From: a virus
IMG/VR virus record: IMGVR_UViG_3300045988_169095
DNA length: 64,000 nt
Strand: one strand, 5' to 3'
A model generated the notes under the pieces. It did no database searches. It worked only from the letters and a program-made list of their open reading frames with translations, and had not been told where the DNA came from. A program made the position numbers and the translations under genes. Shown here piece after piece: positions 17,656 through 56,195 of the stretch (positions are counted from its first letter, which is position 1; every line of letters starts with the position of its first letter).

Positions 17656-17656
17656 T

Positions 17657-18493: not shown

Positions 18494-18495
18494 GT

Positions 18496-27296: not shown

Positions 27297-27401
27297 GGCC
27301 ATGCTTGCTTCTCCATTTTATGGCCCTGTAAGCAAAGTGGTAAAGCTGCTTATATATTCTAGGTTCATAAGTGTGTGGAGGTTCGAGTCCTTCCATGGCC
27401 A
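27297..27401 (+). tRNA. tRNA-like element with an unresolved intervening body. Acceptor strands GGCCATG/CATGGCC are about 93 nt apart. The 3' part TCATA-AGTGTGT-GGAGG-TTCGAGT-CCTTC resembles the 3' half at 27128.
   Basis: Canonical T-arm and acceptor pairing, but the D-arm and anticodon arm cannot be placed canonically. Possible intron or rearrangement. Confidence 0.3.
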
Positions 27402-27500
27402 CGTGGTTTCATATTTAATTTGTTTTTAAGAAGAGGTAACTTACAGCAAATTTAAGTATAATTCGTCTGTTAATTATTCATAGTTACCTAGTTTTAAGGA

Positions 27501-27779: not shown

Positions 27780-27852
27780 GGGAGTATGGCGCAATGATTA
27801 ACGCAATCGGCTGTTAACCGATAGATTCCAGGTTTGAATCCTGGTGCTCCCG
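27780..27852 (+). tRNA. tRNA-Asn(GTT).
   Basis: Acceptor GGGAGTA/TGCTCCC. Anticodon stem ATCGG/CCGAT with loop CTGTTAA. Confidence 0.55.
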
Positions 27853-27870
27853 CTTAAAATTTTAACAAAA

Positions 27871-28329
27871 ATGATAAAGATTTATCTTGCAGGCCCTTTC
27901 TTTAATGAAAAAGAAAGAAATTACATAGAAATTGCAGCAAATATTTTACGTAATCAGGGATATGAAGTTATAGTTCCTATGGAGCATTTCATTGAAAATG
28001 GTGAGAAGCTAACTAATGAGGAATGGGCACGTAAAGTATTTGAATATGATGTAGAGCAAATCAGAAATGCAGATTGTATACTTGCAATTTATCATGGTCA
28101 TTACTCTGATAGTGGTACTGCATGGGAAATAGGCTTTGCATTTGCACATGATACAACTTGTATTGTTGCTCATGTTGATCCAAGTATTACAGCAAGTATA
28201 ATGCCTGTTACTGGATGCTACTACAATATTAAATTCTCAGATATTGGTAAGATAGATCTGAAGAATTTACTTGATAATGAAAGGCCTTCTTCCAGAGGAT
28301 TGAATGCTTGGATAGTAGAGCAGAAGTAA
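27871..28329 (+). CDS. Nucleoside 2-deoxyribosyltransferase.
   Basis: The IYLAGPFF motif and family-typical length. Confidence 0.6.
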   Translation: MIKIYLAGPFFNEKERNYIEIAANILRNQGYEVIVPMEHFIENGEKLTNEEWARKVFEYDVEQIRNADCILAIYHGHYSDSGTAWEIGFAFAHDTTCIVAHVDPSITASIMPVTGCYYNIKFSDIGKIDLKNLLDNERPSSRGLNAWIVEQK

Positions 28330-30700: not shown

Positions 30701-31189
30701 ATGACTTGGTATTTAATTTTATTAGTAATCTCTGCTTGTATCTTAATTGGACAGACAGTCTTATCCTTTATTGGAGGAGAGATTGATGTTGATATGGATA
30801 CAGACATAGATTCGAGTGACATGTTATCTTTTAAGGGTATTGTTCACTTTGTATTTGGATTTTCTCTAACATTGACTACAATGGGAGGAGTTTCAGTACT
30901 ATCTACTTTCGTAGCTGTTTTGGTGGGATTGTTATTTACTATGATTCTGTTCTATCTTTACAGATACATATATAAGCATCTTCGTCAAGAAATCATCTAT
31001 CAAGATGAAATTAAGGATACTCCCGCACAGGTTTATTATTGGGACTCCGAGTTAAATAAAGGAGAGGTAGTAGTAAAGCTGGAAGGAAGATTAGTATATG
31101 TGGATGCAACATCCACAAAGAATGTTAACTATCAACCTGGAGAATCAGTTATAGTGGAAGGTACACGACATCAAGTAACAATTAAATAA
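30701..31189 (+). CDS. NfeD-like membrane protein with a C-terminal OB-fold.
   Basis: N-terminal TM helices and a C-terminal beta domain. Lies immediately upstream of the SPFH gene. Confidence 0.5.
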   Translation: MTWYLILLVISACILIGQTVLSFIGGEIDVDMDTDIDSSDMLSFKGIVHFVFGFSLTLTTMGGVSVLSTFVAVLVGLLFTMILFYLYRYIYKHLRQEIIYQDEIKDTPAQVYYWDSELNKGEVVVKLEGRLVYVDATSTKNVNYQPGESVIVEGTRHQVTIK

Positions 31190-31196
31190 TTAAAAG

Positions 31197-32810
31197 ATGA
31201 CTCTATTTATCATTCTCGGTGCAGCACTACTGTTAGTGTTGCTCTCAGTAGTGGGAATTCTCTCACGGTACAGAAAATGTCCTTCTGACAAGATTCTTGT
31301 AATCTTTGGTAAGACAGGGGGCGAAAAATCTGCTAAGTGCATTCATGGAGGAGCAGCTTTCGTGGTACCTATCGTACAGGGTTACAGTTTCATGTCACTT
31401 AAACCTTTGCAGTTTGAGTGTAATCTTCAGAAAGCTCTGTCTTCACAGAATATCCGAGTAGATGTTCCAACTACTGTGACTGTAGGTATTTCTACAGAAC
31501 CTGAAGTAATGCAAATGGCTGCAGAGCGATTGCTTGGATTGACTACTGACCAGATTGAAGATCTCGTTAAGGATATTGTATATGGTCAGATGCGTCTAAT
31601 TGTGTCTAATATGACCATTGAAGAGCTGAACTCTGAACGAGACAAGTTCCTGGAAGAAGTGAAGAATGTTGTTGGTGGAGAGCTTCGTAAGATTGGCCTG
31701 CATCTTATCAACGTCAATATCACTGATATCAGGGATGAGGCAGGTTATATCATCGCATTAGGTCAGAAGGACAAAGCAATTGCTCTTAATAAGGCAAATG
31801 TTGAAATCGCTAAGGCTGAAAAGGACGGTGCAACTCAAACTGCAGAGCAGAACAAAATTAAGAACTCTGAAGTTGCTGCAACCCAACGTGAGGAAGCAGT
31901 TGCGGTCGCAGTGGCAAATGCCGAGCGAGATTCCAAGGTTGCAGAAACTCAGCGTACTCGTGATATCAATGTGGCAACTGCTAAAGCAGAAGGTGAGATT
32001 GGTAAAATCGAAGCTGAGAAGACTGTAACAAACAAGAATGCTGAGTTGGAAGTTGTGCGAGCAGATGCTGAAAAGGCTGCAAACACAGCTCGTGTAAAAG
32101 CAGAAGCTGAAGTCGCTAAGGAGAAAGAGCTTGCTCAAGTAGAAGTTGTTAAGGCTGAAGCAAAAGTGCTGCAAGAGCAAGAACTCGCTCAGAAGACTGC
32201 AGAAGAAGCTCGTGCTCAGCGTCAAGAAGCAGCCTTACATGCTGATAAGATTGTACCTGCAGAAATTTCTAAGAAAGAGAGTCTGCTGCGTGCTGAAGCT
32301 TATCAGCTGGAACAGGAGAAAATCGCAGAAACTAATGCTAATAAGACTAAAATCGAAGCTGATGGTAAAGCGCAAGCTGAAGCTCTCAAGGGTGAAGGTG
32401 AGGCTAAAGCCATTACTGCTAAAGGTCTTGCTGAAGCAGAGGTTGTTCGTCAGAAAGGTTTGGCTCAGGCAGAAGCAGAGAAAGCTTCTCTTAAGGCTCA
32501 GGCAGATGGTTTCCGTGAGATGATCGAAGCTGCCAAAACTGATCCTGCGATTGCAATTCAGTTCAAGATGGTTCAAGAAGGAACCTACGAAAACATTGCT
32601 AAGCAACAGGTTGAGGCTTACAAGCACATGAACTTCGGTAATGTGACCATCATGGACACTACGAAGGGTGGAGGCCTCACAAATGTGATGCAAAGCCTTC
32701 TGTCTCAAGTATCCCCCATGCTGAATGTTATGAAAGAAATGAAAATTCCTGGAGTATCAAAGGTATTGGAAGAGAAAACTGAGGATGCTAAATTTCCTGA
32801 AGTTAAGTAA
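31197..32810 (+). CDS. SPFH/Band-7 flotillin-like protein (537 aa).
   Basis: N-terminal TM helix, an SPFH domain, and a long Ala/Glu/Lys-rich coiled-coil repeat region (flotillin-like). Confidence 0.6.
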   Translation: MTLFIILGAALLLVLLSVVGILSRYRKCPSDKILVIFGKTGGEKSAKCIHGGAAFVVPIVQGYSFMSLKPLQFECNLQKALSSQNIRVDVPTTVTVGISTEPEVMQMAAERLLGLTTDQIEDLVKDIVYGQMRLIVSNMTIEELNSERDKFLEEVKNVVGGELRKIGLHLINVNITDIRDEAGYIIALGQKDKAIALNKANVEIAKAEKDGATQTAEQNKIKNSEVAATQREEAVAVAVANAERDSKVAETQRTRDINVATAKAEGEIGKIEAEKTVTNKNAELEVVRADAEKAANTARVKAEAEVAKEKELAQVEVVKAEAKVLQEQELAQKTAEEARAQRQEAALHADKIVPAEISKKESLLRAEAYQLEQEKIAETNANKTKIEADGKAQAEALKGEGEAKAITAKGLAEAEVVRQKGLAQAEAEKASLKAQADGFREMIEAAKTDPAIAIQFKMVQEGTYENIAKQQVEAYKHMNFGNVTIMDTTKGGGLTNVMQSLLSQVSPMLNVMKEMKIPGVSKVLEEKTEDAKFPEVK

Positions 32811-32854: not shown

Positions 32855-32940
32855 CCCGACGCGGCTACGATGGTGGAGTGGCGCAGCACTGTAAATGCTG
32901 TACATCAGAAACTCATGAGGTTCGAATCCTCACGGCGGGA
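32855..32940 (+). tRNA. tRNA-Tyr(GTA), type II.
   Basis: Anticodon stem CAGCA/TGCTG with loop CTGTAAA. Long variable arm. T-arm TGAGGTTCGAATCCTCA. The acceptor is 6/7 paired. Confidence 0.5.
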
Positions 32941-32955
32941 CTAATTTATATTGAC

Positions 32956-33426
32956 ATGAAAATTGTAGATAATTTTATATTCTTCTGGGGAGGTTGGTTA
33001 AGTAACTTTCATCCTTGTAGAATAGTATTTGGCTCTAAAGTTTTTAAATCATCTGAACAGCTTTTTATGTATCTTAAAGCTTTGCATTTTGGTGATATAG
33101 AAACAGCAGAGAGGATTCTATTAGCAGAGACTCCAAAGGAAGCTAAAACCCTTGGTAGGGAGGTTAGAAACTTTGATGAAAAATCCTGGAATGAGGTTAA
33201 GATTCAGAAAATGTATCTTGCCTTGGAAGGTAAATTTAGCCAAAATAAAGATTTAATGGATAAACTTAAAGACCCAGCATTAAATGGGAAATTCTTTGTT
33301 GAAGCATCTCCCTTTGATAGAGTCTGGGGTATAGGCTATGATCAAGATCATGCACTTCAAAACCAATCAAATTGGGGAGAAAATCTACTTGGTAAGACTC
33401 TTACCTTTTACAGAGGATCTTTATAA
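32956..33426 (+). CDS. NADAR (DUF1768/YbiA-like) domain protein.
   Basis: A pattern of conserved residues matching the NADAR family. ATG at 32956, after the tRNA. Confidence 0.55.
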   Translation: MKIVDNFIFFWGGWLSNFHPCRIVFGSKVFKSSEQLFMYLKALHFGDIETAERILLAETPKEAKTLGREVRNFDEKSWNEVKIQKMYLALEGKFSQNKDLMDKLKDPALNGKFFVEASPFDRVWGIGYDQDHALQNQSNWGENLLGKTLTFYRGSL

Positions 33427-33432
33427 ACAATT

Positions 33433-33473
33433 TGCGGATATTGACATCGCTCAATATCCGCTTTATTTTTAAA
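33433..33473 (+). terminator. Rho-independent terminator.
   Basis: Stem GCGGATATT..AATATCCGC followed by a T-run. Confidence 0.55.
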
Positions 33474-33483
33474 ACTTAATAAG

Positions 33484-35175
33484 ATGTTTGAAGCAAAAAA
33501 GAAAACATTATTTGCTGTTGATAGCAGTAAATCGGCATCTAAATCAGCCTTTATTCAGGCAGGATTAAAAACTGCAGCAGAAACCACTACAGGTAACGGT
33601 GGTAAAGCCTATTCCAGTACAGGGGATCCCTTCGTTGACCAGTTTGGTAGTACATCTAAGTACAGAGAGATTCGCCCATTTGCAGAAATTGCAAAAGATT
33701 GTGAAATTCTCTGGGCAGAAAATAAAGAAGATACTGTTAAATTTATCTTTTTCTTGCGAATGATTTGTCGTAAGATTAATGATAAAGAGTATGGTACCAA
33801 AGAAGCACAGAAGGGTTCTGAACTTCGTCATGAAGGTATTATGCGTCTCATCTGGCTGCATATCAAAGATAAAGAAGTGTTCTGGAAGAATGCTTGGTTG
33901 ATTCCCTTAGTGGGTTCTTGGAAAGATCTCTTCGTTATGCTTCGTTATGACTTAGTTTATAACGGCTGGGAACACCGAGTTCTGGATTGGCGCCGTTTTG
34001 CAGATCTGATTACTGCTGGCCTTAGTTCTGATTCCCAAACGAATCTTCTTCGTAAGTATCTTCCTCAGATCAAGGCACGTTCCAAGTGTACTACAGTAGA
34101 GGCACAAGCAAATTGTATGATTGCAAAATGGCTGTGTTCAGAACTTTACGGTGCGTCAGGAGCAAAGACAGATGCTGAAAAGTATCAGGTATATCGTTCT
34201 TATGCAAAGATGAAAGCCGCAGGGACAGCACATAGCTGGCAACAGCTTATTTCAAAGCAACGATATACAGAGATTGACTTTGATAAGATTCATGGTCGTG
34301 CCTTAAACCTTCTTGTACACTCCAAGTTCTTAGAGAATCATAATCTCAAAGAGAAGTATCAGGAATGGATAGGAGCTCCAGAGACAAAGAAGGTGAAGTA
34401 CACAGGTTTTGTACATGAGCTCTTTAAACCTATTTGTAACACTGCTCCTTATAATATAGAGCAGCATATCAAAGATACTATTAATAAGCAGTTTATGACT
34501 CTTGTTAATAAGTGTAAGGAAGAGGGCAATACTACAGATCTAATTGTAGTACGTGATACTTCTGGTTCAATGGGTGCAGAAGCAACTGGAACTTCCATGT
34601 CTTGTTACAATGTAGGTAAGGCAATTGCTCTGTATTTCTCTTACTTCTTGAGAGGAAGGTTTCAAAATGCATGGATTGAGTTCAACTCGAAAGCTATGAT
34701 GCATGAGTGGAAAGGAGAAACTCCTCTGGAAAAATGGTTTAATGACCATTCAGGGTACTATGGAAGTACAAACTTTGAGGGTGTTATTAACCTCTTTACT
34801 CAGTTGAAACTTGAAGGTGTTCCAGAAGAGGAATTTCCTAAAGGAATTCTTTGTATCAGTGATTGTGAGTTTGATGCTTCAAGTCTGAATAAGACTTCAG
34901 TTGAAAGAGTTCATGATACATTGACAGCTGCAGGATTTTCTAAAGAGTATGTTGATAATTTTGTCATTTGCCTTTGGAATTTGAGAAATGATTACTACGG
35001 ATATAATGTACAAAATCGTGTTCCATTCCAAACTTATGGTGACGTCAAGAATGTCTACTATATGTCTGGATATTCAGCACAGATTGTATCTTTCTTAAAT
35101 AGGAAGGTGCAGACTACACGGGATCTGTTTGATGAGGCTATGAATCAAGAGATTCTGTCTCTCATTAAGATGTAA
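33484..35175 (+). CDS. Large protein with a C-terminal vWA-like MIDAS motif. Possibly a DUF2828-like family member.
   Basis: 563 aa. MIDAS motif DTSGSMG. GC-rich. Confidence 0.45.
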   Translation: MFEAKKKTLFAVDSSKSASKSAFIQAGLKTAAETTTGNGGKAYSSTGDPFVDQFGSTSKYREIRPFAEIAKDCEILWAENKEDTVKFIFFLRMICRKINDKEYGTKEAQKGSELRHEGIMRLIWLHIKDKEVFWKNAWLIPLVGSWKDLFVMLRYDLVYNGWEHRVLDWRRFADLITAGLSSDSQTNLLRKYLPQIKARSKCTTVEAQANCMIAKWLCSELYGASGAKTDAEKYQVYRSYAKMKAAGTAHSWQQLISKQRYTEIDFDKIHGRALNLLVHSKFLENHNLKEKYQEWIGAPETKKVKYTGFVHELFKPICNTAPYNIEQHIKDTINKQFMTLVNKCKEEGNTTDLIVVRDTSGSMGAEATGTSMSCYNVGKAIALYFSYFLRGRFQNAWIEFNSKAMMHEWKGETPLEKWFNDHSGYYGSTNFEGVINLFTQLKLEGVPEEEFPKGILCISDCEFDASSLNKTSVERVHDTLTAAGFSKEYVDNFVICLWNLRNDYYGYNVQNRVPFQTYGDVKNVYYMSGYSAQIVSFLNRKVQTTRDLFDEAMNQEILSLIKM

Positions 35176-35187
35176 ACTTAATAGGCT

Positions 35188-35218
35188 CTAGTAGAAATAC
35201 TAGAGCCTTTTTATTAAT
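35188..35218 (+). terminator. Rho-independent terminator.
   Basis: Stem GGCTCTAGTA..TACTAGAGCC followed by TTTTTATT. Confidence 0.55.
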
Positions 35219-35227
35219 AATCTAATT

Positions 35228-35362
35228 ATGGGTAAGTACCTTAAAGATTATCAAATTCCTGATTATTGCGAGGAGGATAAACCTAGAATGCCAAAGCGGC
35301 CTAAGAAGTTTAAAGACCAAGAGGGAGGAAAACCTTTAGTAAAGAAAAAGTTCAAGCGATGA
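35228..35362 (+). CDS. Small basic protein (44 aa, or 49 aa if the terminal TGA is read through).
   Basis: Short ORF with RBS-like context. Confidence 0.3.
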   Translation: MGKYLKDYQIPDYCEEDKPRMPKRPKKFKDQEGGKPLVKKKFKR

Positions 35363-35663
35363 AGAGATGATTCTTAAGAGTATTTAGAAGGTTTAATGAA
35401 CCATCAACTGATAGTTCAAAAGAATTTCCTAAAAAAGTAATTGACTTAGAACAATTTGACGATGTATTCATAGTTACTAATAAAAAAGTATATAAGGCCT
35501 GGGTTATGAAAAGAACCAGTAGACTTTTACAGATTTTTATTTGGGAGTCTAAAAAGGAGGTAATTATAAATACAATTGGACAAGCTAATTCTAGTGTTAT
35601 TCCTTTTGGCAAGGATAGCTATTTAATTATAAATAAAAAAGATATATGCGATTACTTGTAGTA
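35359..35663 (+). CDS. Hypothetical protein (about 100 aa) with TGA=Trp at codon 4.
   Basis: Open only if TGA is sense. Overlaps the start of the following gene. Confidence 0.3.
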
Positions 35664-36227
35664 GTTGATATGCAAGAAGACTTCATCAGAGGTGCATTAA
35701 CGGTTCCTGGTGCTGAAGAAATAATTTCTCCTATAGAGAAATTAGTTAAAGAGTATATAACAGCAGATGATGCTGTCCTTTTTACTCGGGATACTCATTA
35801 TGAGCATAGTGATACTAGGGGATTTAGCTATGCTATGACTCGTGAAGGTAGAAATCTTCCAATTCTTCATTGCGTTTGTGGAACTGAAGGTCATAAGCTT
35901 ATTAAGGAATTTAAGCCTTATCTTCGTTCCTGCTATGTAATGGATAAACTAAATAGGTTTGGATTTATCCAGGATGAGTTTAATGATGCCAAGATAGATG
36001 ATGGAGAATATTTATTCGACATCGCTGATTGCATTACAGAAATTACTTTGGTTGGTGTAGTAACTAATCTTTGTGTTATTTCATGTGCTGTAAGTTTTCA
36101 GCAAATATTCCCTGATGCAGATATCATCATAGATGCTTCCTGCTGTCGTTCCAATAACAATGAACTTCATAACAAAGCTTTAGATGTTATGGAGGGTTTA
36201 CAAATGACTATAATTAATCGTTATTAA
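35646..36227 (+). CDS. Isochorismatase-family hydrolase, nicotinamidase (PncA)-like.
   Basis: N-terminal LLVVDMQEDF and cysteine-hydrolase fold length. Confidence 0.55.
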   Translation: MRLLVVVDMQEDFIRGALTVPGAEEIISPIEKLVKEYITADDAVLFTRDTHYEHSDTRGFSYAMTREGRNLPILHCVCGTEGHKLIKEFKPYLRSCYVMDKLNRFGFIQDEFNDAKIDDGEYLFDIADCITEITLVGVVTNLCVISCAVSFQQIFPDADIIIDASCCRSNNNELHNKALDVMEGLQMTIINRY

Positions 36228-36313
36228 TTTTTTGATTTTTATAAACTTAATGTTTAGAACAGTTTGTGAAATTAAATTTTATTGATATCTTTGTAGTATA
36301 AAACTAATAAAGT

Positions 36314-36802
36314 ATGGATAAAATTTGTTCAAAATGTGGGGAAACTAAAGACATTTCACTCTTTGCTAAGGATCGACACTCTTCTGATGGATATACTTAT
36401 TGATGTAAAGATTGTAGAAATACAGCAAATAAGAAATATCGGAAAGAAAATCCTGATAAAGTTCAGGAACATAATGAAAAGTGAAGAGATAAAAGAAAAG
36501 AATATTATAGTCTTCCTAAAAATCAAGAAAAGCTTAGAAGACATCATCTCAAGAAAATGTATAATATTACTTTGGAAGACTATGATGCTTTGTTTCAACT
36601 TCAAGGTGGTGTTTGTGCTATATGTGGAAAACCTGAAACAAGCTCAAAGGCTAGTAACTTAGCAGTAGATCATAATCACACAAATGGTAGTATTAGAGGC
36701 CTATTATGTAATAAATGTAATAGAGGCTTAGGATATTTTGAAGATGATGCAACTATTTTGTCTAAAGCTATAGAATATTTAAAAAATAAAGATAATGTTT
36801 AG
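36314..36802 (+). CDS. HNH endonuclease (T4 endonuclease VII-like) with 2 in-frame TGA=Trp codons.
   Basis: N-terminal zinc-ribbon CSKCG..CKDC joins in frame to the track ORF at 36557-36802, which carries CAICGK and DHNH. Confidence 0.5.
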
Positions 36803-38279
36803 ACCGTGTTCAGTCCTCCTTTCAGATTTTTATAAGCAGGATCACCAGCGTCAATATGACCCTAGCATCACTAAGGTAGTTTCTTACTATGTACCTCGTA
36901 AAACTAGGATTCCTGAATTTGATAAGGTAGTAGTTTTTGGTATTCAAGCATTTATTGAGGAATATCTGATTGAGTACATGAATGAAACTTTCTTTAACCG
37001 TCCCTTAGAAGAAGTTATTGCAGAATATGAATTTGTGATTTCTTCTACTATGGGAGCAGACCGTGTTAACTCGGATAAAATTAAAAACCTTCATGAATTA
37101 GGATATCTTCCTATCGAAATTTGGGCACTTCCTGAGGGATATAAAGTAGGAATGAATATCCCCTGTATCGAGATTTCTAATACTAATCCAGAATTTGCAT
37201 GGTGTACTAATTTCATTGAAACCTTGATGCTCTCTGAGCTTTGGTATCCAATGTGTGTTGCAACTGCTGTAACTAAATATCGTAGTATTGTAAATGATTT
37301 TTATTCTAAAACTTCTGATATTTCTGGTCGTTCTGCTATTTCTGAGTTCGGATTTAGAAGTTTAGTTGGACTTCATGGTGCTATTAAAGCTTCGTGTGGA
37401 TTTTTGCTCTCTTTTAATAAGACTGCGACTATTCCTGGCATTATGTATGCTTCAAAGTATTATCATACCCCAATGTCTGTAGTAGGTGGAGGTATGGCTT
37501 CTACTGAGCACTCCGTAATGTGTAGTTCTGCTGCCATTGATGGGGATGAAAAAGTTATGATTCGACGCCTCCTTACTGAGGTCTATCCTAATGGATCATT
37601 CTCTATGGTAAGTGATTCCTATGATTACTGGAATGTTGTCGATGAGATTCTCCCATCTCTTAAGGAAGAAATTCTCAGTAGAAATGGTACTTTGTATGTT
37701 CGTGGTGACTCTGGAGATCCTGTAGAAATTGTAACTGAGACGGTTTTCTCTCTTTGGGAGACTTTTGGAGGCACTGTCAACTCTAAGGGATATAAAGTCT
37801 TAGACCCTCATGTTCGAGCTTTATATGGTGATGGCATCACTCAGTTACGTGCAAAACAGATTTATCAGATTTTGTATGATAAAGGATTCTCTGCAGAGAA
37901 TGTTGCACTTGGTGCAGGAGGATTTTCCATGCTTTCTTACATGGATGAGTTTGGGAATGTAGATATGTTCTCTCGCGATACATTTAATGTAGCAATTAAA
38001 TGCAGCTATGTAGAACAAACCATTGATGGAAAAACTAAATCTATCATGGTCTACAAAGATCCTAAAACGGATTCAGGAATGAAGAAATCCCACAGAGGAT
38101 GTTGTGCTGTTTTCTACAACCATGTAACTGGTGAGTTTGATTGTGATGAAGGTATGACACTGAAAGAAGCTCATAATGAGCCTTTCAATTTACTTCGTCC
38201 TATCTTTTCAGATGGAAAAATGAGAGAGCAAACTACTCTCACAGAAATTCGTAGAACTCTTTGGAACGGGAAATTCTAA
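36795..38279 (+). CDS. Nicotinamide phosphoribosyltransferase (NAMPT/NadV family). May be a Namat-like enzyme.
   Basis: Extended similarity blocks to NAMPT: SDFYKQ..YDP, LPIEIWALPEG, SDSYDYWN, GDSGDP. Confidence 0.65.
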   Translation: MFRPCSVLLSDFYKQDHQRQYDPSITKVVSYYVPRKTRIPEFDKVVVFGIQAFIEEYLIEYMNETFFNRPLEEVIAEYEFVISSTMGADRVNSDKIKNLHELGYLPIEIWALPEGYKVGMNIPCIEISNTNPEFAWCTNFIETLMLSELWYPMCVATAVTKYRSIVNDFYSKTSDISGRSAISEFGFRSLVGLHGAIKASCGFLLSFNKTATIPGIMYASKYYHTPMSVVGGGMASTEHSVMCSSAAIDGDEKVMIRRLLTEVYPNGSFSMVSDSYDYWNVVDEILPSLKEEILSRNGTLYVRGDSGDPVEIVTETVFSLWETFGGTVNSKGYKVLDPHVRALYGDGITQLRAKQIYQILYDKGFSAENVALGAGGFSMLSYMDEFGNVDMFSRDTFNVAIKCSYVEQTIDGKTKSIMVYKDPKTDSGMKKSHRGCCAVFYNHVTGEFDCDEGMTLKEAHNEPFNLLRPIFSDGKMREQTTLTEIRRTLWNGKF

Positions 38280-39049
38280 TGAAAGAAGTATATGAAGGAA
38301 TAGTTTCCTTTCTTAAGAATTATCAAGAACGTACCCATGTGAAAGGGTATGTTCTTGGTATTTCTGGAGGAAAGGATTCTACTGTAGTGGCCAAATTATT
38401 GGTAGATTCTATAGGTAAGGAAAATGTATTAGGTGTGCTAATGCCTAATGGTAAGCAAGCTGATATTGAGGATAGTTATACAGTATGTGACTTTCTTGAT
38501 ATTAACTATACTGTTGTTAATATAGAAAATGCGTTTGATGAACTTATTCATCAAATTGATGTTTCGAAAATAACTACAGTGGAAGGGAATGAAGAAAACA
38601 TTCCAGTAACGAAAAAGGCTCTTACTAATGTTCCTCCTCGTATTCGTATGACTATTCTATATACTATAGCTCAGTCTGTAGGATATCGAGTAGCGGGGAC
38701 TAGTAATGCTTCAGAATTATTTATTGGTTGGGGAACTAAATGGGGAGATTTGGCATCTGATATTAATCCTATTTCTCAATTAACATGTTCTGAAGTTATT
38801 TCTTTAGGAGACTATATGGGACTCCCATATGATCTTATACATAAGACTCCTGCAGATGGATTAACAGGAAAGTCTGATGAAGAAAATTTTGGTTTTACAT
38901 ATAAAGAACTTGACACTCTTATTGTAAAGCAGCGAAATCTTACTTGCACAGGTAGAATACAATGTGCTTTTACTGAACAAGAATTAAAAATCTTAAAATT
39001 ACATGAAGCTGCGTATCACAAAGATCATGTAATTAAAATACAGTATTAA
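38261..39049 (+). CDS. NH3-dependent NAD+ synthetase (NadE)-like PP-loop ATPase.
   Basis: The motif GYVLGISGGKDSTVVAKLL (SGGxDS PP-loop) and NadE-like length. Confidence 0.55.
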   Translation: MEREILMKEVYEGIVSFLKNYQERTHVKGYVLGISGGKDSTVVAKLLVDSIGKENVLGVLMPNGKQADIEDSYTVCDFLDINYTVVNIENAFDELIHQIDVSKITTVEGNEENIPVTKKALTNVPPRIRMTILYTIAQSVGYRVAGTSNASELFIGWGTKWGDLASDINPISQLTCSEVISLGDYMGLPYDLIHKTPADGLTGKSDEENFGFTYKELDTLIVKQRNLTCTGRIQCAFTEQELKILKLHEAAYHKDHVIKIQY

Positions 39050-39050
39050 T

Positions 39051-39941
39051 ATGGGAAGCGGATCATGGAGTTCTAGCACATATAAAGCTTTTGCTAATAG
39101 CTATACTAAAAAATCCAGAGAAGAAATCTTTCATCAAAGATCTCTACACGAAGAAATGGATCTTACAAAAAGTAAGACGCATATTCGAGAATCTAGAGAT
39201 TCTGAGGAACACCCAGAATCTCTTCCAGTTTTCATTGCATTAGATGAAACTGGTTCAATGGGTTCAATTCCTGATAAGATGATCAGGGATTATCTTCCGA
39301 AGTTAATGGATTCTATTATTGATTCTATTGGAGTTAAACACCCTCAAATTCTTTTTATGGGAGTAGGAGATCATGAATGTGATCACTGCCCGTGTCAGGT
39401 AGGTCAATTCGAATCTTCAACTGTTGCAATTAATCAGTGTCTCTCTAAAATCTATTTGGAGGGTCGTGGTGGAGGTAATAGTGGAGAATCCTACTTACTT
39501 CCTTGGATTATTGCAGGAAATCACACGTCAATTGATAGCTGGGAAAAGCGAAAGCAAAAAGGATTCCTTTTTACAGTTGGTGATGAACCTACTTTGACAA
39601 GAATAAGTAGGGGAACTTTGGCATCCCTCACTGGAATGGAGTATGAGCGTGATTATACCTGGCAGGAGGCTTATGAACTTGCCTGTGAGAAATATCATGT
39701 GTTTCATATCCATGTTCGACATGGAAGTGAACATTATGATGAGGTAGTAGCTAAACAAATGAAAGAAATTCTTAGAGAAAACTTTATTGTGTGCAAACCT
39801 GATGAAGTTGTAGAAGCCATTTGTGAAGCTATGGGTAAAACTCTAAAAGGTAGCTCTTCAGTAATTGAAGAGGTTTCTGCAGAAAAAACTGTAGAAAATA
39901 CAGAATCAAAACCTAATATATTTGACATACATCGACGATAA
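39051..39941 (+). CDS. vWA-domain protein.
   Basis: MIDAS motif FIALDETGSMG. Confidence 0.45.
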   Translation: MGSGSWSSSTYKAFANSYTKKSREEIFHQRSLHEEMDLTKSKTHIRESRDSEEHPESLPVFIALDETGSMGSIPDKMIRDYLPKLMDSIIDSIGVKHPQILFMGVGDHECDHCPCQVGQFESSTVAINQCLSKIYLEGRGGGNSGESYLLPWIIAGNHTSIDSWEKRKQKGFLFTVGDEPTLTRISRGTLASLTGMEYERDYTWQEAYELACEKYHVFHIHVRHGSEHYDEVVAKQMKEILRENFIVCKPDEVVEAICEAMGKTLKGSSSVIEEVSAEKTVENTESKPNIFDIHRR

Positions 39942-41035
39942 TGTATAATATTGTAGTGGGTTGTACGTTTGGCGACGAGGGCAAGGGTCAAGTGACTCAT
40001 GCCCTTTGTTGCGACGCTAAAAGAAAGCGTTTAAAACCTCTGGTTGTTAGATTTTCTGGAGGGCATCAAGCAGGGCACACAGTAACTACTTCATTTGGAA
40101 CAATGCATATATTTTCTTGCTTTGGATCTGGAACATTTGCTGAAGCACCTACCTATTGGATGAAGCAATGTGTTATGGATCCACTACAATGGATGCGGGA
40201 ACGAGAGGAGTTGGATTTCTTAGGATGTAATATCCCTATCCAATATTTTGATCCATATGTACAAGTAACAACTCCTTTTGACGTAATGCTGAATTCTGAA
40301 AGGAGTAAAGGTTTTACAGTAGGAAAAGGGATATGGGAGACTGTTCAGAGACAAAGAGAAGGACTAGCTTTATATGTAAAAGATTTAGCTTTTCCTCAAG
40401 TTGTAAAAATGAAGCTCCGATTAATTAGAGAATGGGCGGAAGATAGACTCCAGTTTAAGGAAACTTATTCAAGATTTGCTTATGTTTTCGATAACTTAGA
40501 TTCTTTAGTACATACTTATTGTAAGATTTTTTATCCCAATATAGTATTGGAGGATACGTTATCTAAATTAGCATGGAAAGAAAAGACTTCTGTGATATTT
40601 GAGGGTTCTCAAGGAGTACTTTTGGACCCTAATATTGGATTTTCACATGAATATACTACCCCACTTCCATGTTGTCCATCGTGGGACAATCTCCCATTCT
40701 TTTTAAGTGATGATCAACTAATATTTAATTTTGTATATAGATCTTATTTAACAAGACATGGTAAAGGGCCTGTTGGAGGTTCTATATTCAAGGAGATTAA
40801 TAATCCTTATGAAACAAATTTAAATAACCCTTTTCAAGGGGAATTTCAAACTTATGAATTCAATAAGGAATTAGTCTTGTATGGAATTGATCATGTTAAA
40901 TCACACTTTAATCCTGAATATAAGGTAAGGTTGATTGAAACATGTTGTGACATATGTGCAGGACATGACTTAGGAATCCCTTATAATTACTCTATCAAAA
41001 CCTGCAAAAAGAATTTTGACTCTGTATGCAAATAA
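39941..41035 (+). CDS. Adenylosuccinate-synthetase-family protein, truncated (364 aa, PurA/PurZ-like).
   Basis: P-loop GDEGKGQ and GGHQAGHT motifs characteristic of PurA. Confidence 0.5.
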   Translation: MYNIVVGCTFGDEGKGQVTHALCCDAKRKRLKPLVVRFSGGHQAGHTVTTSFGTMHIFSCFGSGTFAEAPTYWMKQCVMDPLQWMREREELDFLGCNIPIQYFDPYVQVTTPFDVMLNSERSKGFTVGKGIWETVQRQREGLALYVKDLAFPQVVKMKLRLIREWAEDRLQFKETYSRFAYVFDNLDSLVHTYCKIFYPNIVLEDTLSKLAWKEKTSVIFEGSQGVLLDPNIGFSHEYTTPLPCCPSWDNLPFFLSDDQLIFNFVYRSYLTRHGKGPVGGSIFKEINNPYETNLNNPFQGEFQTYEFNKELVLYGIDHVKSHFNPEYKVRLIETCCDICAGHDLGIPYNYSIKTCKKNFDSVCK

Positions 41036-41832
41036 TTAACTTTTTATACCCAGAAAAGTCAGAAATAAAGTATCGAATTGATACTTATCCTGATTCCCAA
41101 TCCCATCTTGTACTTGAGTCTGAAATGGATAGACGAAAGTCTCTGTTGATCTATACTAGATTATCCAATTTGAATGATATTTGGATTCTAATGCAATTAG
41201 TGGATATTTGTCATCGTCAAGGTATCCAGATTTCCTGTCTACAAATAGCTTATTTGTTTGCAGCGCGAACTGATAGATTATTTTCTTTTAATGAGGCATT
41301 AGATTTGGAGCTTGTTAAAAAATGTCTTATCTTTGTACAAGCACAGCGAATTCTAGTACTGGATCCTCATTCTAAGCGTTTGATTACAGAAGGGGTAATT
41401 GATAATGACTGGCCTGCATTCTTTGCTTTAGAAGCAAGTTCTAATATTCCAGAGAATGTTTTATTCCCTGACGAAGGTGCCTATCATCGTTACAGTGAGC
41501 TTTTTGACTCTGATACGACATACTATGCTACAAAGCATAGGATTTCAAGAGATAAGCTAGAGGTAAAATTACCTTCTAGAATAAAGCAAAATACTTCTAT
41601 TCTAGTTTTTGATGATTTATGTGATGGTGGGGGAACTTTCTTTGCAATTCATAAAGCATTACAAGACATGGGAGTAACTGATATGCATTTACGTGTCATA
41701 CATGCTATCCAAAAAGAACCTTTAGTAAAGTTATCAAAACTTTACAAAACAATAACAATTACCAATTCTTATAAGGATTGGGATAAAGAAGAACTTCCAA
41801 ACAATATAAAAGTAATAAAAGTTTATGAATAA
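41026..41832 (+). CDS. Ribose-phosphate pyrophosphokinase (Prs)-like protein. Candidate ADP-ribose pyrophosphokinase (Adps-like).
   Basis: AARTDR resembles Prs RQDR. The PRPP-binding loop reads ILVFDDLCDGGGT. Confidence 0.5.
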   Translation: MQIINFLYPEKSEIKYRIDTYPDSQSHLVLESEMDRRKSLLIYTRLSNLNDIWILMQLVDICHRQGIQISCLQIAYLFAARTDRLFSFNEALDLELVKKCLIFVQAQRILVLDPHSKRLITEGVIDNDWPAFFALEASSNIPENVLFPDEGAYHRYSELFDSDTTYYATKHRISRDKLEVKLPSRIKQNTSILVFDDLCDGGGTFFAIHKALQDMGVTDMHLRVIHAIQKEPLVKLSKLYKTITITNSYKDWDKEELPNNIKVIKVYE

Positions 41833-42175
41833 ATTTAATGAAATTCTGAGTGCTACTGGAACTGCGGTACTCAAGAAACGTGCTGAAATTATCAATGCTG
41901 ATGCCCGCGAAGCAGCTAAGGATCAGGTTAATCTTATTGAGAAAGAGATTCGTCAGATTAAGTCCAAGATTATGAATCTGGAGGATCTGTCGATTAAATC
42001 GACCGAATCACTGGTTGTAGGTACGGATTTTAAGGCAGATGAGTGGGTAACTCAGATGTTCAAGCTTCGTGATGACTTGCGCAACGCTGAAATCTGTCTG
42101 GAAATTGCTCAGAATATTTATAATGAGTATTTCACAGAACTTCCTGAAGTAAGCTGCGATAAGAAAGCAGAGTAA
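41825..42175 (+). CDS. Small coiled-coil protein.
   Basis: 116-aa ORF. Confidence 0.4.
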   Translation: MNKFNEILSATGTAVLKKRAEIINADAREAAKDQVNLIEKEIRQIKSKIMNLEDLSIKSTESLVVGTDFKADEWVTQMFKLRDDLRNAEICLEIAQNIYNEYFTELPEVSCDKKAE

Positions 42176-42185
42176 CTTCATAGGC

Positions 42186-42205
42186 GGATTTACTCCGCCT
42201 TTTGA
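42186..42205 (+). terminator. Rho-independent terminator.
   Basis: Stem GGCGGA..TCCGCC followed by TTTT. Confidence 0.5.
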
Positions 42206-42279
42206 GGGCCTTTAGCTCAATTGAATAGAGCATCTGACTACGGATCAGAAGGTTACAGGTTTGAGTCCTGTAGGGCCCA
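42206..42279 (+). tRNA. tRNA-Arg(ACG).
   Basis: Acceptor GGGCCTT/AGGGCCC. Anticodon stem TCTGA/TCAGA with loop CTACGGA. Confidence 0.55.
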
Positions 42280-42475
42280 CATATGAAAACTGTTTTATAT
42301 AGAATACAATCAATTGAAGCTCCAGAAAATGAAGGGTTTCGGTATGGCTCATTAAGAACACTATCTAAGACAAAAGTAGATGAAGAAATGTGCTTAAGGA
42401 ATGAGTTTGGAAGTCATTATCTAATTAATGTTCCAGATTATTGAATTTGTGAGATTTTAAAAGAAATAGAAGAAG

Positions 42476-43537
42476 ATGATGTATAGTTTAGATGAAATAG
42501 GTATTTTACCTAGTTCAAAAGCCACGGATATTACAAGTCGTAGTGAGTGTAGTCCTTTAGGAGACTTAGGAACATATCCTATTTTTGTTTCTCCTATGAC
42601 ATCCGTTATTGATGAATCAAATTATCAACTTTTTACAAAGGCTGATGTGCTTCCAATTATTCCAAGACGTGTAGATAATTTACAGTTTAGACTTAATGCA
42701 TGTAACCATGTTTGGTGTGCATTTAGTTTAAAGGAATTTGAAACATTCTTTTGTGAAGGAGAACCTTCTGATGAGTGTCCTCTGGTACTTATTGATATGG
42801 CTAATGGCCACATGAAGAAAATTTATGACCTGGTTAAGAAGGCTAAGGAAAAGTGGAGCACGATTATTATCATGGTAGGTAATATAGCTCATCCAGATCT
42901 TTATTGGGAATGCTATGATGCAGGGGTGGACTATGTTCGTGTAGGTATTGGAACTGGCAGTGTATGTACTACAGGAGTAAAAACTGGAGTACATGCTTCT
43001 ATGGAATGGCTATTGCAACAATTAGTTAAGCGTCGATCCATGATTAAAGAGTCTCCTAAACCTAAAAAGGCTCCAAAGATTATCGCAGATGGAGGAATTT
43101 CTACAATAGATCGAGCTATAAAGTGTTTAGCTTTGGGCGCCGATTATGTAATGATGGGTAAAATGTTTGCTCAATGTAACGAAGCTTGTGGGTATGTTAG
43201 AACAAAGTGGCCAGATGATAATGATACTATACTTAAATATTTTGCATCTTTAACTAAAGCAGAAAGTGATCGAATCATTGAAGTGTATCCTAAAGAGCGA
43301 TTATACTACGGAATGGCAAGTGAACGTGGTCAAAAGGATATTTCAAACACTAAAAAGGCCGAAGAAGGAATTGAAATTTGGGTTCCTGTTGAATATACTC
43401 TTGAATCTTTACTTTCTCAATTTGATTCTGCATTAAGGTCTGCTATGTCTTATACAGGATGTAGGACTCTTGAAGAATTCAAAAATGTAAAATGGGAGTA
43501 TATGTCTCCCTCTGAAAGAAATGCTTATTACAAATAA
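42476..43537 (+). CDS. GMP reductase/IMP dehydrogenase-family TIM-barrel protein.
   Basis: Catalytic Cys loop GIGTGSVCTT and GGISTIDRAIKCLALGADYVMMG. Confidence 0.55.
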   Translation: MMYSLDEIGILPSSKATDITSRSECSPLGDLGTYPIFVSPMTSVIDESNYQLFTKADVLPIIPRRVDNLQFRLNACNHVWCAFSLKEFETFFCEGEPSDECPLVLIDMANGHMKKIYDLVKKAKEKWSTIIIMVGNIAHPDLYWECYDAGVDYVRVGIGTGSVCTTGVKTGVHASMEWLLQQLVKRRSMIKESPKPKKAPKIIADGGISTIDRAIKCLALGADYVMMGKMFAQCNEACGYVRTKWPDDNDTILKYFASLTKAESDRIIEVYPKERLYYGMASERGQKDISNTKKAEEGIEIWVPVEYTLESLLSQFDSALRSAMSYTGCRTLEEFKNVKWEYMSPSERNAYYK

Positions 43538-45708: not shown

Positions 45709-45926
45709 TTATGAAAAATACAGGTTTACATGATATTCTGGATGAACTAAGAGATAAAGAGTCTTTACATGTAGAAATCGGATGGCATCCTAATGGATAT
45801 GCATACTCTATTTATAGAATTAATAGGCGAGATACAGAGCCGTGTTATGCTTCTTCTGAAAGATACTATAATTATCGGGAATGCTTAGGAGCGGCAATTG
45901 TAAAAGCAATGAACTTAGCGGATTAA
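45666..45926 (+). CDS. Hypothetical protein of the ECLEAG-family.
   Basis: C-terminal ECLGAAIVKAMNLA. Confidence 0.4.
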   Translation: MFRSWNYKSIKSYIIMKNTGLHDILDELRDKESLHVEIGWHPNGYAYSIYRINRRDTEPCYASSERYYNYRECLGAAIVKAMNLAD

Positions 45927-45931
45927 TAAAA

Positions 45932-46339
45932 ATGAAAACACTTCTTTGGGTAGATGATGCTCGTAATCCAATGGAAGATGATTGGATGAATTTTAGTCCA
46001 ATTGGGAGGAATTGTAAAGTAATATGGGCTCAATCTTACCAAGAAGCGATTGATTTTCTTGAGAAAGAATGGCCTGATGCAATTTGTCTAGATCATGATT
46101 TAGGGGAAGAGAAATCTGGATATGATATAGCTAAGTATATTGTGGATAAATGTATAGATGAAGGATATATTCTTCCACAATTTGCAAGTCAATCTGCAAA
46201 TCCTGTTGGTAGAGAGAATATTCTTTGTTTATTAAAAAACTACAGTAAACAAAGGCTTATAGAACATGTACAAAAGGTTCGTCAATATCAACGTGATTGG
46301 TTAACTGCAGTTCAGAATGGAGAAGACTTGCCAAAGTGA
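45932..46339 (+). CDS. Orphan receiver (REC/CheY-like) domain protein.
   Basis: LLWVDD followed by acidic residues. ATG at 45932. Confidence 0.4.
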   Translation: MKTLLWVDDARNPMEDDWMNFSPIGRNCKVIWAQSYQEAIDFLEKEWPDAICLDHDLGEEKSGYDIAKYIVDKCIDEGYILPQFASQSANPVGRENILCLLKNYSKQRLIEHVQKVRQYQRDWLTAVQNGEDLPK

Positions 46340-48347: not shown

Positions 48348-48437
48348 GCGCCTGACCCGAGGCGGGGGGGAGGTCTTCAAAACCTCTATGCTGTTGGTCC
48401 ATCTTCAGCCCTGTGGGATCGTTACCTACCAGGCGTG
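48348..48437 (+). tRNA. Candidate opal suppressor tRNA-Sup(TCA). It reads UGA, probably as Trp given G73. It has a long variable arm and an atypical T-loop ATCGTTA.
   Basis: Perfect 5-6 bp anticodon stem GAGGT/ACCTC with the 7-nt loop CTTCAAA. Acceptor GCGCCTG/CAGGCGT with G1.U72. Discriminator G. Confidence 0.55.
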
Positions 48438-48453
48438 CAAATAAGAAGTAAAT

Positions 48454-55619: not shown

Positions 55620-56195
55620 ATGAAATTAAAAACTGAGGCACAGGAATCAACAGAGAAATTAGATATTAAGAGAAGGAAGTGTACTTTATCTGAGAATATT
55701 CAAAAACTTTTACTGCGGCAATTAAAACACGAGCTGTATAATCATAACCTCTATATGAGTTTTTCTAACTTTTATGGAGTGCAAGGATTAGCTGTTCTGG
55801 AACAGTATTATAAAGAACGTGCAGATGAGGAATATCATCATCATTCATGGATTCGTACATATATGAATGAGAATGATGCAGCATATATTTACCCTGATAT
55901 TCCTGCCATTAGTGAAACTTTTGAAGATAATGTAACGCCATTTAAGTTAACTGTAGATAAGGAGATTCAAACAACTCAACTTATTTATGAAATTGTGGAT
56001 GCAGCTCTTGAAGAGGGGGACTGGGCCACTTTTAATTGGCTAAATGGAGATAACGATGAAACTGGACGACTTGTTCAAGAACAAGTTGAAGAAGAATCAA
56101 TCTCACGTACTGCTCTAGATATTGCTATGGAGGAAGGTTCTTGGCTTCGTAAGGAGAAATCCATTATGAATGCTTATAAAGGAGATGTTGATTAA
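55620..56195 (+). CDS. Ferritin-like (Dps/rubrerythrin-like) protein.
   Basis: E..Y...Y........G..G...EQ..KE.A.EEY.HH. Confidence 0.4.
   Translation: MKLKTEAQESTEKLDIKRRKCTLSENIQKLLLRQLKHELYNHNLYMSFSNFYGVQGLAVLEQYYKERADEEYHHHSWIRTYMNENDAAYIYPDIPAISETFEDNVTPFKLTVDKEIQTTQLIYEIVDAALEEGDWATFNWLNGDNDETGRLVQEQVEEESISRTALDIAMEEGSWLRKEKSIMNAYKGDVD

Follow-up and report, generated by a model that had tools for sequence, protein, structure and literature searches.

Why should a phage that carries an enzyme of the NAMPT family also carry, in one string of genes, a PncA-like (nicotinamidase-like) hydrolase, the NAD synthetase NadE and a homologue of the kinase Prs? The question is raised by positions 32956-43537 of a stretch from IMG/VR virus record IMGVR_UViG_3300045988_169095, a 64,000-nucleotide (nt) piece of a large, AT-rich and uncultured phage-like genome that is referred to below as the window. 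NAD+ depletion is among the commonest bacterial anti-phage strategies, and the NAD+ reconstitution system NARP1 is the main known phage answer. NARP1 consists of two enzymes, Adps and Namat (Osterman et al., bioRxiv 10.1101/2024.02.11.579819; Namat structure, PMC12774641). A first-pass annotation of the window had likened the NAMPT and Prs homologues to this pair and had taken them, with the remaining genes of the region, for one combination broader than the two-gene pathway. We propose that the core is four genes, coding for the PncA-like protein, a Namat-clade enzyme, an NH3-type NadE and an Adps-like Prs homologue, and that these would form a deamidated version of the NARP1 route, a reading to which we assign a probability of about 0.55. 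The features on which it turns are:

35646-36227, + strand: PncA-like protein of the Isochorismatase family (PF00857, 74.6 bits)
36229-36794, + strand: 566-bp indel between the PncA-like and Namat-like genes, containing an 81-amino-acid (aa) open reading frame (ORF) at 36557-36802
36795-38279, + strand: NAMPT-family, Namat-like enzyme (PF04095 and PF18127; phrog_448, E 1e-154; NF006629, 437 bits, cut-off 405)
38279-39049, + strand: NadE (PF02540, 185 bits; TIGR00552, 180 bits, cut-off 63.65)
41026-41832, + strand: Prs-like protein (phrog_619, E 8.6e-37)

All ten genes of 32956-43537 lie on the + strand, and those named in the first-pass annotation are where it had placed them and have domain or family support, some with scores under curated cut-offs; the NAMPT, NadE, Prs and PncA assignments in particular survive domain searches. 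Between 36795 and 42175, six genes (Namat-like, NadE, vWA-like, PurA-like, Prs-like and a 116-aa ORF) abut or overlap, with no strong terminator-like hairpin between genes from the Namat-like gene to the 116-aa ORF. In this arrangement, unlike that of NARP1, three other genes separate the two NARP1 genes, the Prs-like gene lying 2.7 kb downstream of Namat.

The Namat-like enzyme and its partners

On sequence comparison, the NAMPT homologue of the window is a member of the Namat (NARP1) clade and not of the Nampt clade. It scores 374 bits against SPbetaL1 Namat (PDB 9w5x, whose identity was confirmed by a 100% match) and 193-201 bits against human and Xanthomonas Nampt, and it stands among Namat sequences in a neighbour-joining tree that has a human NAMPT sequence as its root. 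Equivalog models for NAPRTase reach only 30-36 bits against cut-offs of 297-503, placing the protein outside the PncB family. The Namat-clade scores, together with Prs-like relatives that adjoin Namat in crAss-like phages, speak for the proposed resemblance to the Adps/Namat type.

In SPbetaL1 Namat, the nicotinamide pocket comprises F189, R192, D215, A242, R306, D13' and Y15', with D215 hydrogen-bonded to nicotinamide and A242 lining the pocket (PMC12774641). The window enzyme keeps D13 and Y15, shares with NARP1 the core residues F189, R192, H245, R306, D308, R399 and D400 as well as the clamp residues R40 and F392, and, as in NARP1, is encoded in one gene string with a Prs-family diphosphokinase homologue. 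It differs in the pyridine pocket, where the alignment places A211 at D215, S236 at A242 and K209 at G213. The same substitutions run through the 88 sequences of the variant clade: the D215 position is Ala in 84 and Ser in 4, the A242 position is Ser in 88/88 and the G213 position is Asn or Lys in 88/88, while in 81 canonical sequences the D215 position is Asp in 80 and Glu in one. Ten further active-site residues are invariant in both clades. According to reviews citing Khan et al. 2006 (PMC7096376, PMC4919578), the equivalent residue of human NAMPT, Asp219, sets substrate specificity, and the mutants that they list include D219A, with activity lost, and D219S, with the substrate switched. 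This changed nicotinamide pocket, which the first-pass annotation did not mention, is the most informative feature of the locus.

The adenine side of the active site is conserved in part. The clamp of Namat consists of R40, F392 and Y396 with the motif GSXΦXΦXΦTRD, and an R40A/F392G enzyme loses the use of ADP-ribose pyrophosphate (ADPR-PP) and retains that of phosphoribosyl pyrophosphate (PRPP) (PMC12774641). R40 is present in 79/88 and F392 in 88/88 variant-clade sequences, which have Ser or Cys at the position aligned to Y396 and, unlike NARP1, an insertion of at least 9 residues in the SCH motif. In the window this clamp reads GGFSMLSYMDEFGNVDMFSRD, with the position-3 Phe retained, SRD in place of TRD and an insertion of 10 residues.

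The three partners are divergent to different degrees. The best PDB match of the PncA-like protein is the yeast nicotinamidase Pnc1 (2h0r, E 2.6e-12), with whose D8/K122/C167 triad its D8, K101 and C143 align, and with whose metal ligands D51/H53/H94 its D49, H51 and H75 align; the NCBIfam PncA equivalog gives 27 bits against a cut-off of 174, which marks it as a divergent member. L018, the closest relative, lacks the indel downstream of this gene and has only 4 nt between the PncA-like and Namat-like genes; L005 has the indel. The start codon of NadE (ATG, 38279) and the stop of Namat share nucleotides in TAATG; NadE has a full-length NAD_synthase domain, and its PDB relatives are NH3-dependent NadE enzymes. 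The Prs-like protein falls under the cut-off of every NCBIfam Prs model and of Pfam Pribosyltran and retains the diphosphokinase motifs in a divergent form. It is 36% and 33% identical to the Namat-adjacent Prs-like proteins of the crAss-like phages cr85_1 and DAC15. Elsewhere in the variant clade the Prs-like proteins are plainly Adps-like, matching E. coli Prs at about 25% but the Adps reference from SPbetaL1 at 37-42% identity. Since its nearest kin are of the crAss type and those of its clade mates of the SPbetaL1 type, the window lineage seems to have swapped in a crAss-type prs copy. The host signals differ in direction, the Prs-like gene pointing to Bacteroidota phages and the remaining module genes to Bacillota.

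Relatives of the module in viruses and bacteria

Viral contigs around relatives of the window enzyme and of canonical Namat were collected, and for each locus the residue at the D215 position and the genes within 10 kb were scored. Where this residue is Ala or Ser (89 viral loci), a PncA-like gene occurs in 83, NadE in 81 and a Prs-like gene in 85; where it is Asp or Glu (81 viral loci, comprising only the relatives nearest SPbetaL1), the counts are 0, 0 and 78. Profile hidden Markov models (HMMs) of the variant clade, applied to 84 canonical loci, again found PncA in 0/84 and NadE in 0/84; the NadE HMM used here was built after a contaminating HAD-like family had been removed. Twelve canonical-locus matches of the uncleaned NadE HMM were an artefact of that family of small proteins, which single-linkage clustering had drawn into the underlying alignment.

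The Ala/Ser forms, with 29 representatives at 90% identity or less, constitute a single clade in the neighbour-joining tree, which implies that the pocket change arose once. The 89-versus-81 contrast is therefore a clade trait held over long divergence, not a record of many independent events. Within the clade identity drops to 48% and gene order varies, the arrangements including pncA-prs-namat-nadE, pncA-vWA-purA-prs-namat...nadE and pncA...namat-nadE-vWA-purA-prs. ORF clustering of 30 divergent representatives leaves four near-universal families, PncA-like (30), Prs-like (30), Namat-like (27) and NadE (27), followed at a distance by Macro (10), MazF (9), SPFH (7) and SLOG (5). The recurrence of these four in nearly all relatives means that their clustering exceeds chance. 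An adenylyltransferase (NadD/NMNAT), such as the Nmnat that accompanies Nampt in NARP2, does not recur within 10 kb in the 30 representatives, and none is found among the 40 ORFs scanned in Pfam within the 64 kb of the phage that the window covers. Of the suggestion that the locus is broader than a two-gene pathway, the part concerning PncA and NadE thus stands, as they co-occur with this Namat subclade; the other genes are not part of it.

These counts also bear on whether the locus holds canonical NARP1, making NAD+ from nicotinamide and ADPR-PP, next to an unrelated PncA and NadE that top up NAD+ through host PncB and NadD. Such a juxtaposition would draw on the accumulation of NAD-related genes in phage accessory regions, on the add-ons (Macro phosphatases, RyDEP) known in other NARP1 loci and on the fact that most catalytic residues are unaltered. 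We nevertheless regard it as quite improbable: the amide-binding Asp is gone in all 88 variant sequences, with D219A of human NAMPT appearing in the reviews' list as a loss of activity; a phage nicotinamidase would consume the substrate of a nicotinamide-using Namat; and in the sampled loci it is the Ala/Ser form that has PncA and NadE as neighbours, the Asp/Glu form having neither.

The variant has an apparent source in bacteria. Searching prokaryotes with one genome for each species, we obtained 80 bacterial loci, all of the Ala form and all in the order pncA-prs-namat-nadE, mostly from gut and rumen Bacillota (Lachnospiraceae, Ruminococcus and others). A gene for NrtR lies beside the module in 54/80 of them, as opposed to 0/89 viral loci. 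In the isolate Pseudoruminococcus massiliensis (L217, NZ_OLMR01000003.1, 6614-12306) the operon has ordinary chromosomal genes on either side, and its last two genes code for a glutamine-type NadE and for NrtR. NrtR is a regulator of NAD-metabolism genes, and DNA binding of both tested members is relieved by ADP-ribose (PMC2330246), so that the context of the bacterial operon fits a pathway that consumes ADP-ribose. Phages appear to have captured this operon without its regulator.

Two known bacterial arrangements resemble it. NrtR-regulated prs-nadV operons (PMC2330246) and the bacterial NARP1 of Paenibacillus foliorum (PMC12774641) likewise place a chromosomal pair of prs-like and NAMPT-like genes beside NrtR. 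The former, two-gene operons that Rodionov et al. flagged as unexplained in 2008, were interpreted as coding for PRPP synthetase and NadV, whereas the gut Bacillota operon adds pncA first and nadE last and has the Ala form; the four-gene form is not listed in that study (PMC2330246), whose two-gene prs-nadV operons may be ADP-ribose recycling (Adps-Namat) operons. The Preiss-Handler operon pncA-pncB-nadD-nadE of Clostridium acetobutylicum, also under NrtR (PMC2330246), has PncA first, NadE last and the same regulator family, with the difference that PncB and NadD are here exchanged for Adps-like and Namat-like proteins, an exchange to be expected if these two supply nicotinic acid adenine dinucleotide (NaAD), which they could make from nicotinate and ADP-ribose instead of PRPP and ATP. 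Of the Preiss-Handler set, the window has the PncA-like and NadE genes, its phosphoribosyltransferase homologue belongs to the NAMPT/Namat and not to the PncB family, and NadD was not found near the module in the 30 representatives.

Among viruses the variant is concentrated in uncultured material. Megablast of the region against 50,697 GenBank phage records gave no match, and the variant enzyme is encoded in a single record among them, an unannotated uncultured faecal contig, with an identity of about 50%; IMG/VR holds near-identical relatives on contigs of 89-178 kb. Being nearly invisible among cultured phages, the variant would have been missed by surveys of isolate genomes.

Close relatives of the window (L007, L015, L016 and L019) have deletions within the module, vWA/PurA being lost in some and NadE truncated in others, and such deletions create fusions, for example NAMPT_N with PurA and PurA with NadE (P0127, P0137, P0138); the region is a deletion-prone accessory island. 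Compared with L006, L007, L012-L016, L018 and L020, the stretch 35646-41832 is a mosaic of alleles, with 61-63% identity for the PncA-like protein, 62-63% or 83% for NadE and 70% or 88% for the Prs-like protein, in relatives whose flanking genes are 96-99% identical to those of the window, a pattern that points to frequent allele replacement with the gene set retained. A small protein (about 140 aa) whose DxDxT motif suggests a HAD-like identity adjoins Namat in 13/84 canonical and 7/30 variant loci (for example L004 5585-6013, which is Bacteroides phage DAC15 gp037; L099 9489-9981; L161 11447-11912; L090 11452-11862); absent from the window, it may be a further accessory phosphatase of NARP1.

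Routes from nicotinamide to NAD+

The route that we propose, whose substrates, products and anti-defence role we infer from homology, active-site residues, clade membership, gene linkage and co-variation, would begin with a host NADase splitting NAD+ into ADP-ribose and nicotinamide, the latter being turned by the PncA-like enzyme into nicotinate and ammonia. The Adps-like Prs homologue would pyrophosphorylate ADP-ribose to ADPR-PP. The altered Namat, in whose pyridine pocket the amide-binding Asp is gone and Ser and Lys/Asn are new, would then join nicotinate and ADPR-PP directly into NaAD, dispensing with an adenylyltransferase, and NadE would amidate NaAD to NAD+. The likely use to the phage is the restoration of NAD+ during infection, including against NAD-depleting defence. 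Our guesses as to what might be gained are that nicotinate, being charged, stays inside the cell while neutral nicotinamide might escape, that ATP-driven amidation pulls the pathway forward, and that NadE reuses the ammonia released by PncA. In its more specific form, to which we give somewhat less than even odds, the proposal is that the altered Namat is a nicotinate ADP-ribose transferase, switched by D215A/S, A242S and G213N/K, and that with PncA, Adps and NadE it makes up a third, deamidated NAD+ reconstitution route of gut Bacillota that phages have captured.

The extensions of NARP1 already described, NARP1-AP with the Macro-domain phosphatase Adpp (10.64898/2026.01.28.702374) and RyDEP within NARP1 (10.64898/2026.05.28.727677), offer a parallel in that extra enzymes in or beside the two-gene operon widen the usable inputs, and Macro genes lie near 10/30 variant loci. 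Those add-ons work on the ADP-ribose side, converting ADPR-1''-P or cyclic ADP-ribose to ADP-ribose; here the additions concern the pyridine side, and the transferase too has changed. Our literature searches found no description of NARP1 with NadE or PncA, of ADPR-PP with nicotinate or NaAD, or of NARP3, and a nicotinate-route variant of phage NAD+ reconstitution is not described in the literature searched.

A different use of the same four proteins would be a phage Preiss-Handler route through PRPP, in which the Prs-like protein makes PRPP, the NAMPT-family enzyme makes nicotinate mononucleotide (NaMN), and NadE finishes after host NadD has acted, or NadE itself converts NaMN to nicotinamide mononucleotide (NMN). 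Nicotinate used with PRPP fits the pocket changes equally well, and NF006629, the model that the window enzyme matches above its cut-off, is named nicotinate phosphoribosyltransferase, a name generic for NadV-like proteins. The insertion disrupts the SCH clamp, the window Prs-like protein is not clearly nearer to the Adps references than to archaeal Prs, and NadE scores similarly against Francisella 3fiu, which we take to be an NMN synthetase. In vitro, moreover, Namat retains activity with PRPP (PMC12774641). These points are opposed by the position of the enzyme inside the Namat clade and not with Nampt, by the conservation of clamp residues R40 and F392, by the greater identity of the clade's Prs-like proteins, bacterial ones included, to the SPbetaL1 Adps reference than to E. 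coli Prs, by the lack of a recurring NadD/NMNAT gene near the module in the 30 representatives, and by the place of the bacterial operons beside NrtR, whose tested members respond to ADP-ribose. On balance the PRPP route seems to us unlikely.

Several observations weigh against the deamidated NARP1 route. The insertion in the window enzyme breaks the Namat signature GSXΦXΦXΦTRD, the aromatic residue at position 7 is gone, and the binding of ADPR-PP may consequently differ. NadE scores nearly equally against Francisella 3fiu and NaAD-type enzymes, so that either NaAD or NaMN may be its substrate. The Prs-like genes that immediately precede Namat in SPbetaL1 and FADO served as Adps references, on the assumption that they are the validated Adps; by pairwise BLASTP the window Prs-like protein has 23-27% identity to them (55-58 bits, E 2e-12 to 2e-13) and 29 bits (E 6e-4) against E. 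coli Prs, and in a separate PDB-wide phmmer search it has 44 bits against archaeal Prs. In sequence it is thus weakly similar to the Adps references and to a degree comparable with archaeal Prs, and its assignment as Adps depends mainly on the crAss-phage relatives that adjoin Namat. A deletion in L015 removes the Prs-like gene, and such losses of Adps in close relatives imply that the module is dispensable at least sometimes. The restricted canonical sample and the single origin of the pocket change limit what the co-occurrence counts can carry. Finally, the deamidated route costs one ATP more than canonical NARP1.

Neighbouring genes, the vWA/PurA-like cassette and implications

The remaining features of the region include two proteins with von Willebrand factor A (vWA) folds or domains and two related to purine enzymes:

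32956-33426, + strand: NADAR-domain protein (PF08719, 139 bits; TIGR02464, 132 bits)
33484-35175, + strand: DUF7788/DUF2828 vWA protein (DUF7788, PF25043, 45.6 bits, above cut-off; phrog_850, E 2e-32)
39051-39941, + strand: vWA-like protein, 296 aa (phrog_2971; AlphaFold model)
39941-41035, + strand: short PurA-like protein, 364 aa (PF00709, 99 bits, profile positions 1-281 of 416)
41825-42175, + strand: 116-aa ORF, closing the tightly packed gene string
42476-43537, + strand: IMPDH/GMPR-like protein (PF00478, 136 bits)

The flanking genes show little sign of belonging to the module. The listed GTG start of the NADAR gene at 32878 overlaps tRNA-Tyr, which makes the ATG at 32956 its likely start; a NADAR gene lies within 10 kb in 12/85 Ala-form and 3/80 Asp-form loci. 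Strong terminator-like hairpins with an 11-bp stem and a T-run follow this gene (33434-33461) and the DUF2828-vWA gene (35183-35208), each of the two being a transcription unit by itself. The product of the latter matches DUF2828 at 25.4 bits, under the 29-bit cut-off, and has the motif DxSGS (D-T-S-G-S) of a metal-ion-dependent adhesion site (MIDAS); relatives occur near the module outside the window lineage in about 4/30 representatives, and the protein has no detectable similarity to the vWA family of 39051. The GMPR-like gene is separated from the operon by tRNA-Arg (42206-42280) and among variant loci occurs in the window lineage only. Its product has GMP reductase as best NCBIfam model (121 bits, under the 344-bit cut-off), a loop GIGTGSVCTT aligning with C186 of E. 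coli GuaC, conserved DGG and YGM(A)SE motifs, and no CBS domain. NADAR, DUF2828-vWA and GMPR-like genes are neighbours, mainly of the window lineage, in an accessory island rich in ADP-ribose-related genes.

The vWA-like and PurA-like genes, to which the 116-aa ORF may belong, make up a widespread two-gene cassette of their own that has become inserted in the operon. The two have 4678 and 4234 homologues, respectively, and are adjacent in all eight contexts examined, six of them (Vibrio phage pv27, Bixzunavirus mycobacteriophages and four uncultured contigs) without nearby NAD genes. The vWA-like protein has no Pfam match, nor does any of the 120 homologues listed out of 4678 carry a Pfam domain; its AlphaFold2 model (predicted local distance difference test, pLDDT, 88.2) resembles integrin I and vWF-A domains in Foldseek (E ~3e-6, template-modelling (TM) score ~0.48, query-normalised), and it has a MIDAS-like motif D65-x-T67-G-S69 (D-E-T-G-S). 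Its N-terminal MGxGxWxSxxY is conserved from the gut phage of the window (39051-39941) to the Vibrio phage and the mycobacteriophages (L001 8022-8909; L002 7152-8972); in the mycobacteriophage version, of 606 aa, the homology is interrupted by about 255 inserted aa.

The PurA-like protein shares with PurA and PurZ the fold, the P-loop, the catalytic His, the Gln224 motif and TRxGxGP. Its phosphoryl-transfer residues are conserved, among them the P-loop Asp of GDEGKG, which is Ser in PurZ (10.1101/2025.10.22.683976), and it also has GGHQAGH, FEGSQG and TRHGKGP; its model (pLDDT 91.5) gives Foldseek TM scores of 0.67-0.72 to bacterial and plant PurA and 0.59-0.65 to PurZ, PurA also ranking above PurZ0. 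It departs from both in being always paired with a vWA-fold protein and in lacking the aspartate loop and about 70 C-terminal residues (364 aa, against 432 aa for E. coli PurA): PFQGEF-QTYEFN, with a family-specific QGxF motif, stands in place of the aspartate loop ATTGRRRRTGWLD, and the E. coli aspartate-loop residues T300, T301, R303 and R305 are not matched. All PurA equivalog models score under their cut-off (81 versus 402). The absence of the aspartate-binding loop makes it unlikely that this is an ordinary purine enzyme. A PurZ or Z-genome role, suggested by the PHROG label, was rejected, given the P-loop Asp, the structure nearer PurA and a score of 25 bits with NF038379 (cut-off 300). 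A guanine-to-adenine pairing of the PurA-like and GMPR-like proteins is likewise unsupported, the aspartate loop being missing and the two genes not co-occurring outside the window lineage. The literature searched yielded no description of a PurA-like protein together with vWA.

The 116-aa ORF, without a Pfam or PHROG match, overlaps the Prs-like stop by 8 nt and is 31-37% identical to an ORF of about 115 aa just upstream of the vWA/PurA-like pair in L094, L096, L183 and L184. As an obligatory third gene of the cassette it is supported only in part, since relatives without vWA/PurA still carry it at 89-100% identity.

These data also decide how much weight is due to the view that all ten genes of 32956-43537 form one system, in which the vWA, PurA-like, GMPR-like and NADAR proteins feed or regulate NAD+ reconstitution, for instance by converting guanine to adenine nucleotides for ATP and ADP-ribose pools. 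Tight packing, with stops overlapping starts, would suit it, as would the ADP-ribose-related character of NADAR and Macro domains. The vWA/PurA-like pair, moreover, immediately precedes the Adps-like gene both in the window lineage and in that of L083/L091/L092 (47% Namat identity), a placement that can be read either way. Yet the pair occurs without NAD genes in the six other contexts and lies within 10 kb in 15-16/89 variant and 0 canonical loci, relatives that lost it have retained the rest, and its PurA-like member is missing the loop for adenylosuccinate synthesis. With hairpins of their own after the NADAR and DUF2828-vWA genes, and a GMPR-like gene beyond a tRNA and confined to one lineage, the 10.6 kb can hardly be maintained as a single combination, and we consider a ten-gene system very improbable.

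The wider setting is in keeping with an accessory region. Nearly all genes of the window are on a single strand, and 27 tRNA genes are spread over 10244-51263. Two of them, at 27322-27402 and 48348-48438, have anticodons CUA and UCA (labelled Pyl and SeC by ARAGORN) and may be amber and opal suppressors like those of stop-codon-recoding gut phages; in the region analysed here, ORFs run without interruption under the standard genetic code. A scan for sigma-70 promoters carried no information, with 41 sites where 42.5 were expected, PADLOC returned a NADAR-like candidate only, and no homologues of Macro, SLOG, NrtR or the HAD-like family were found in the window. Accessory-type genes surround the region. 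An ion-transport protein (ion channel) at 15357-19332 is followed by a complete ABC importer with an OmpA-fused NMT1/THI5-like binding protein, permease and ATPase; an NfeD-like and SPFH/flotillin pair lies just upstream, at 30701-32810; and genes for a nucleoside 2-deoxyribosyltransferase, cREC_REC (a cyclic-phosphate-processing receiver) and a ferritin-like protein are found at 27844-28329, 45881-46339 and 55620-56195. Distant relatives again have SPFH genes adjoining either the NAD module or the vWA/PurA cassette (L024 12345-13994, L090 13023-14483, L096 11-1324).

The cassette of a vWA-like and a short PurA-like protein, with more than 4000 homologues, is a second lead in its own right. 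As for the four-gene module, if the deamidated NARP1 route is correct, its nicotinate/NaAD variant would mean a new enzyme specificity within the NAMPT family, would account for the presence of a nicotinamidase and an NAD synthetase in these operons, and would connect a counter-defence of phages with an operon by which abundant gut bacteria recycle ADP-ribose as a housekeeping function.

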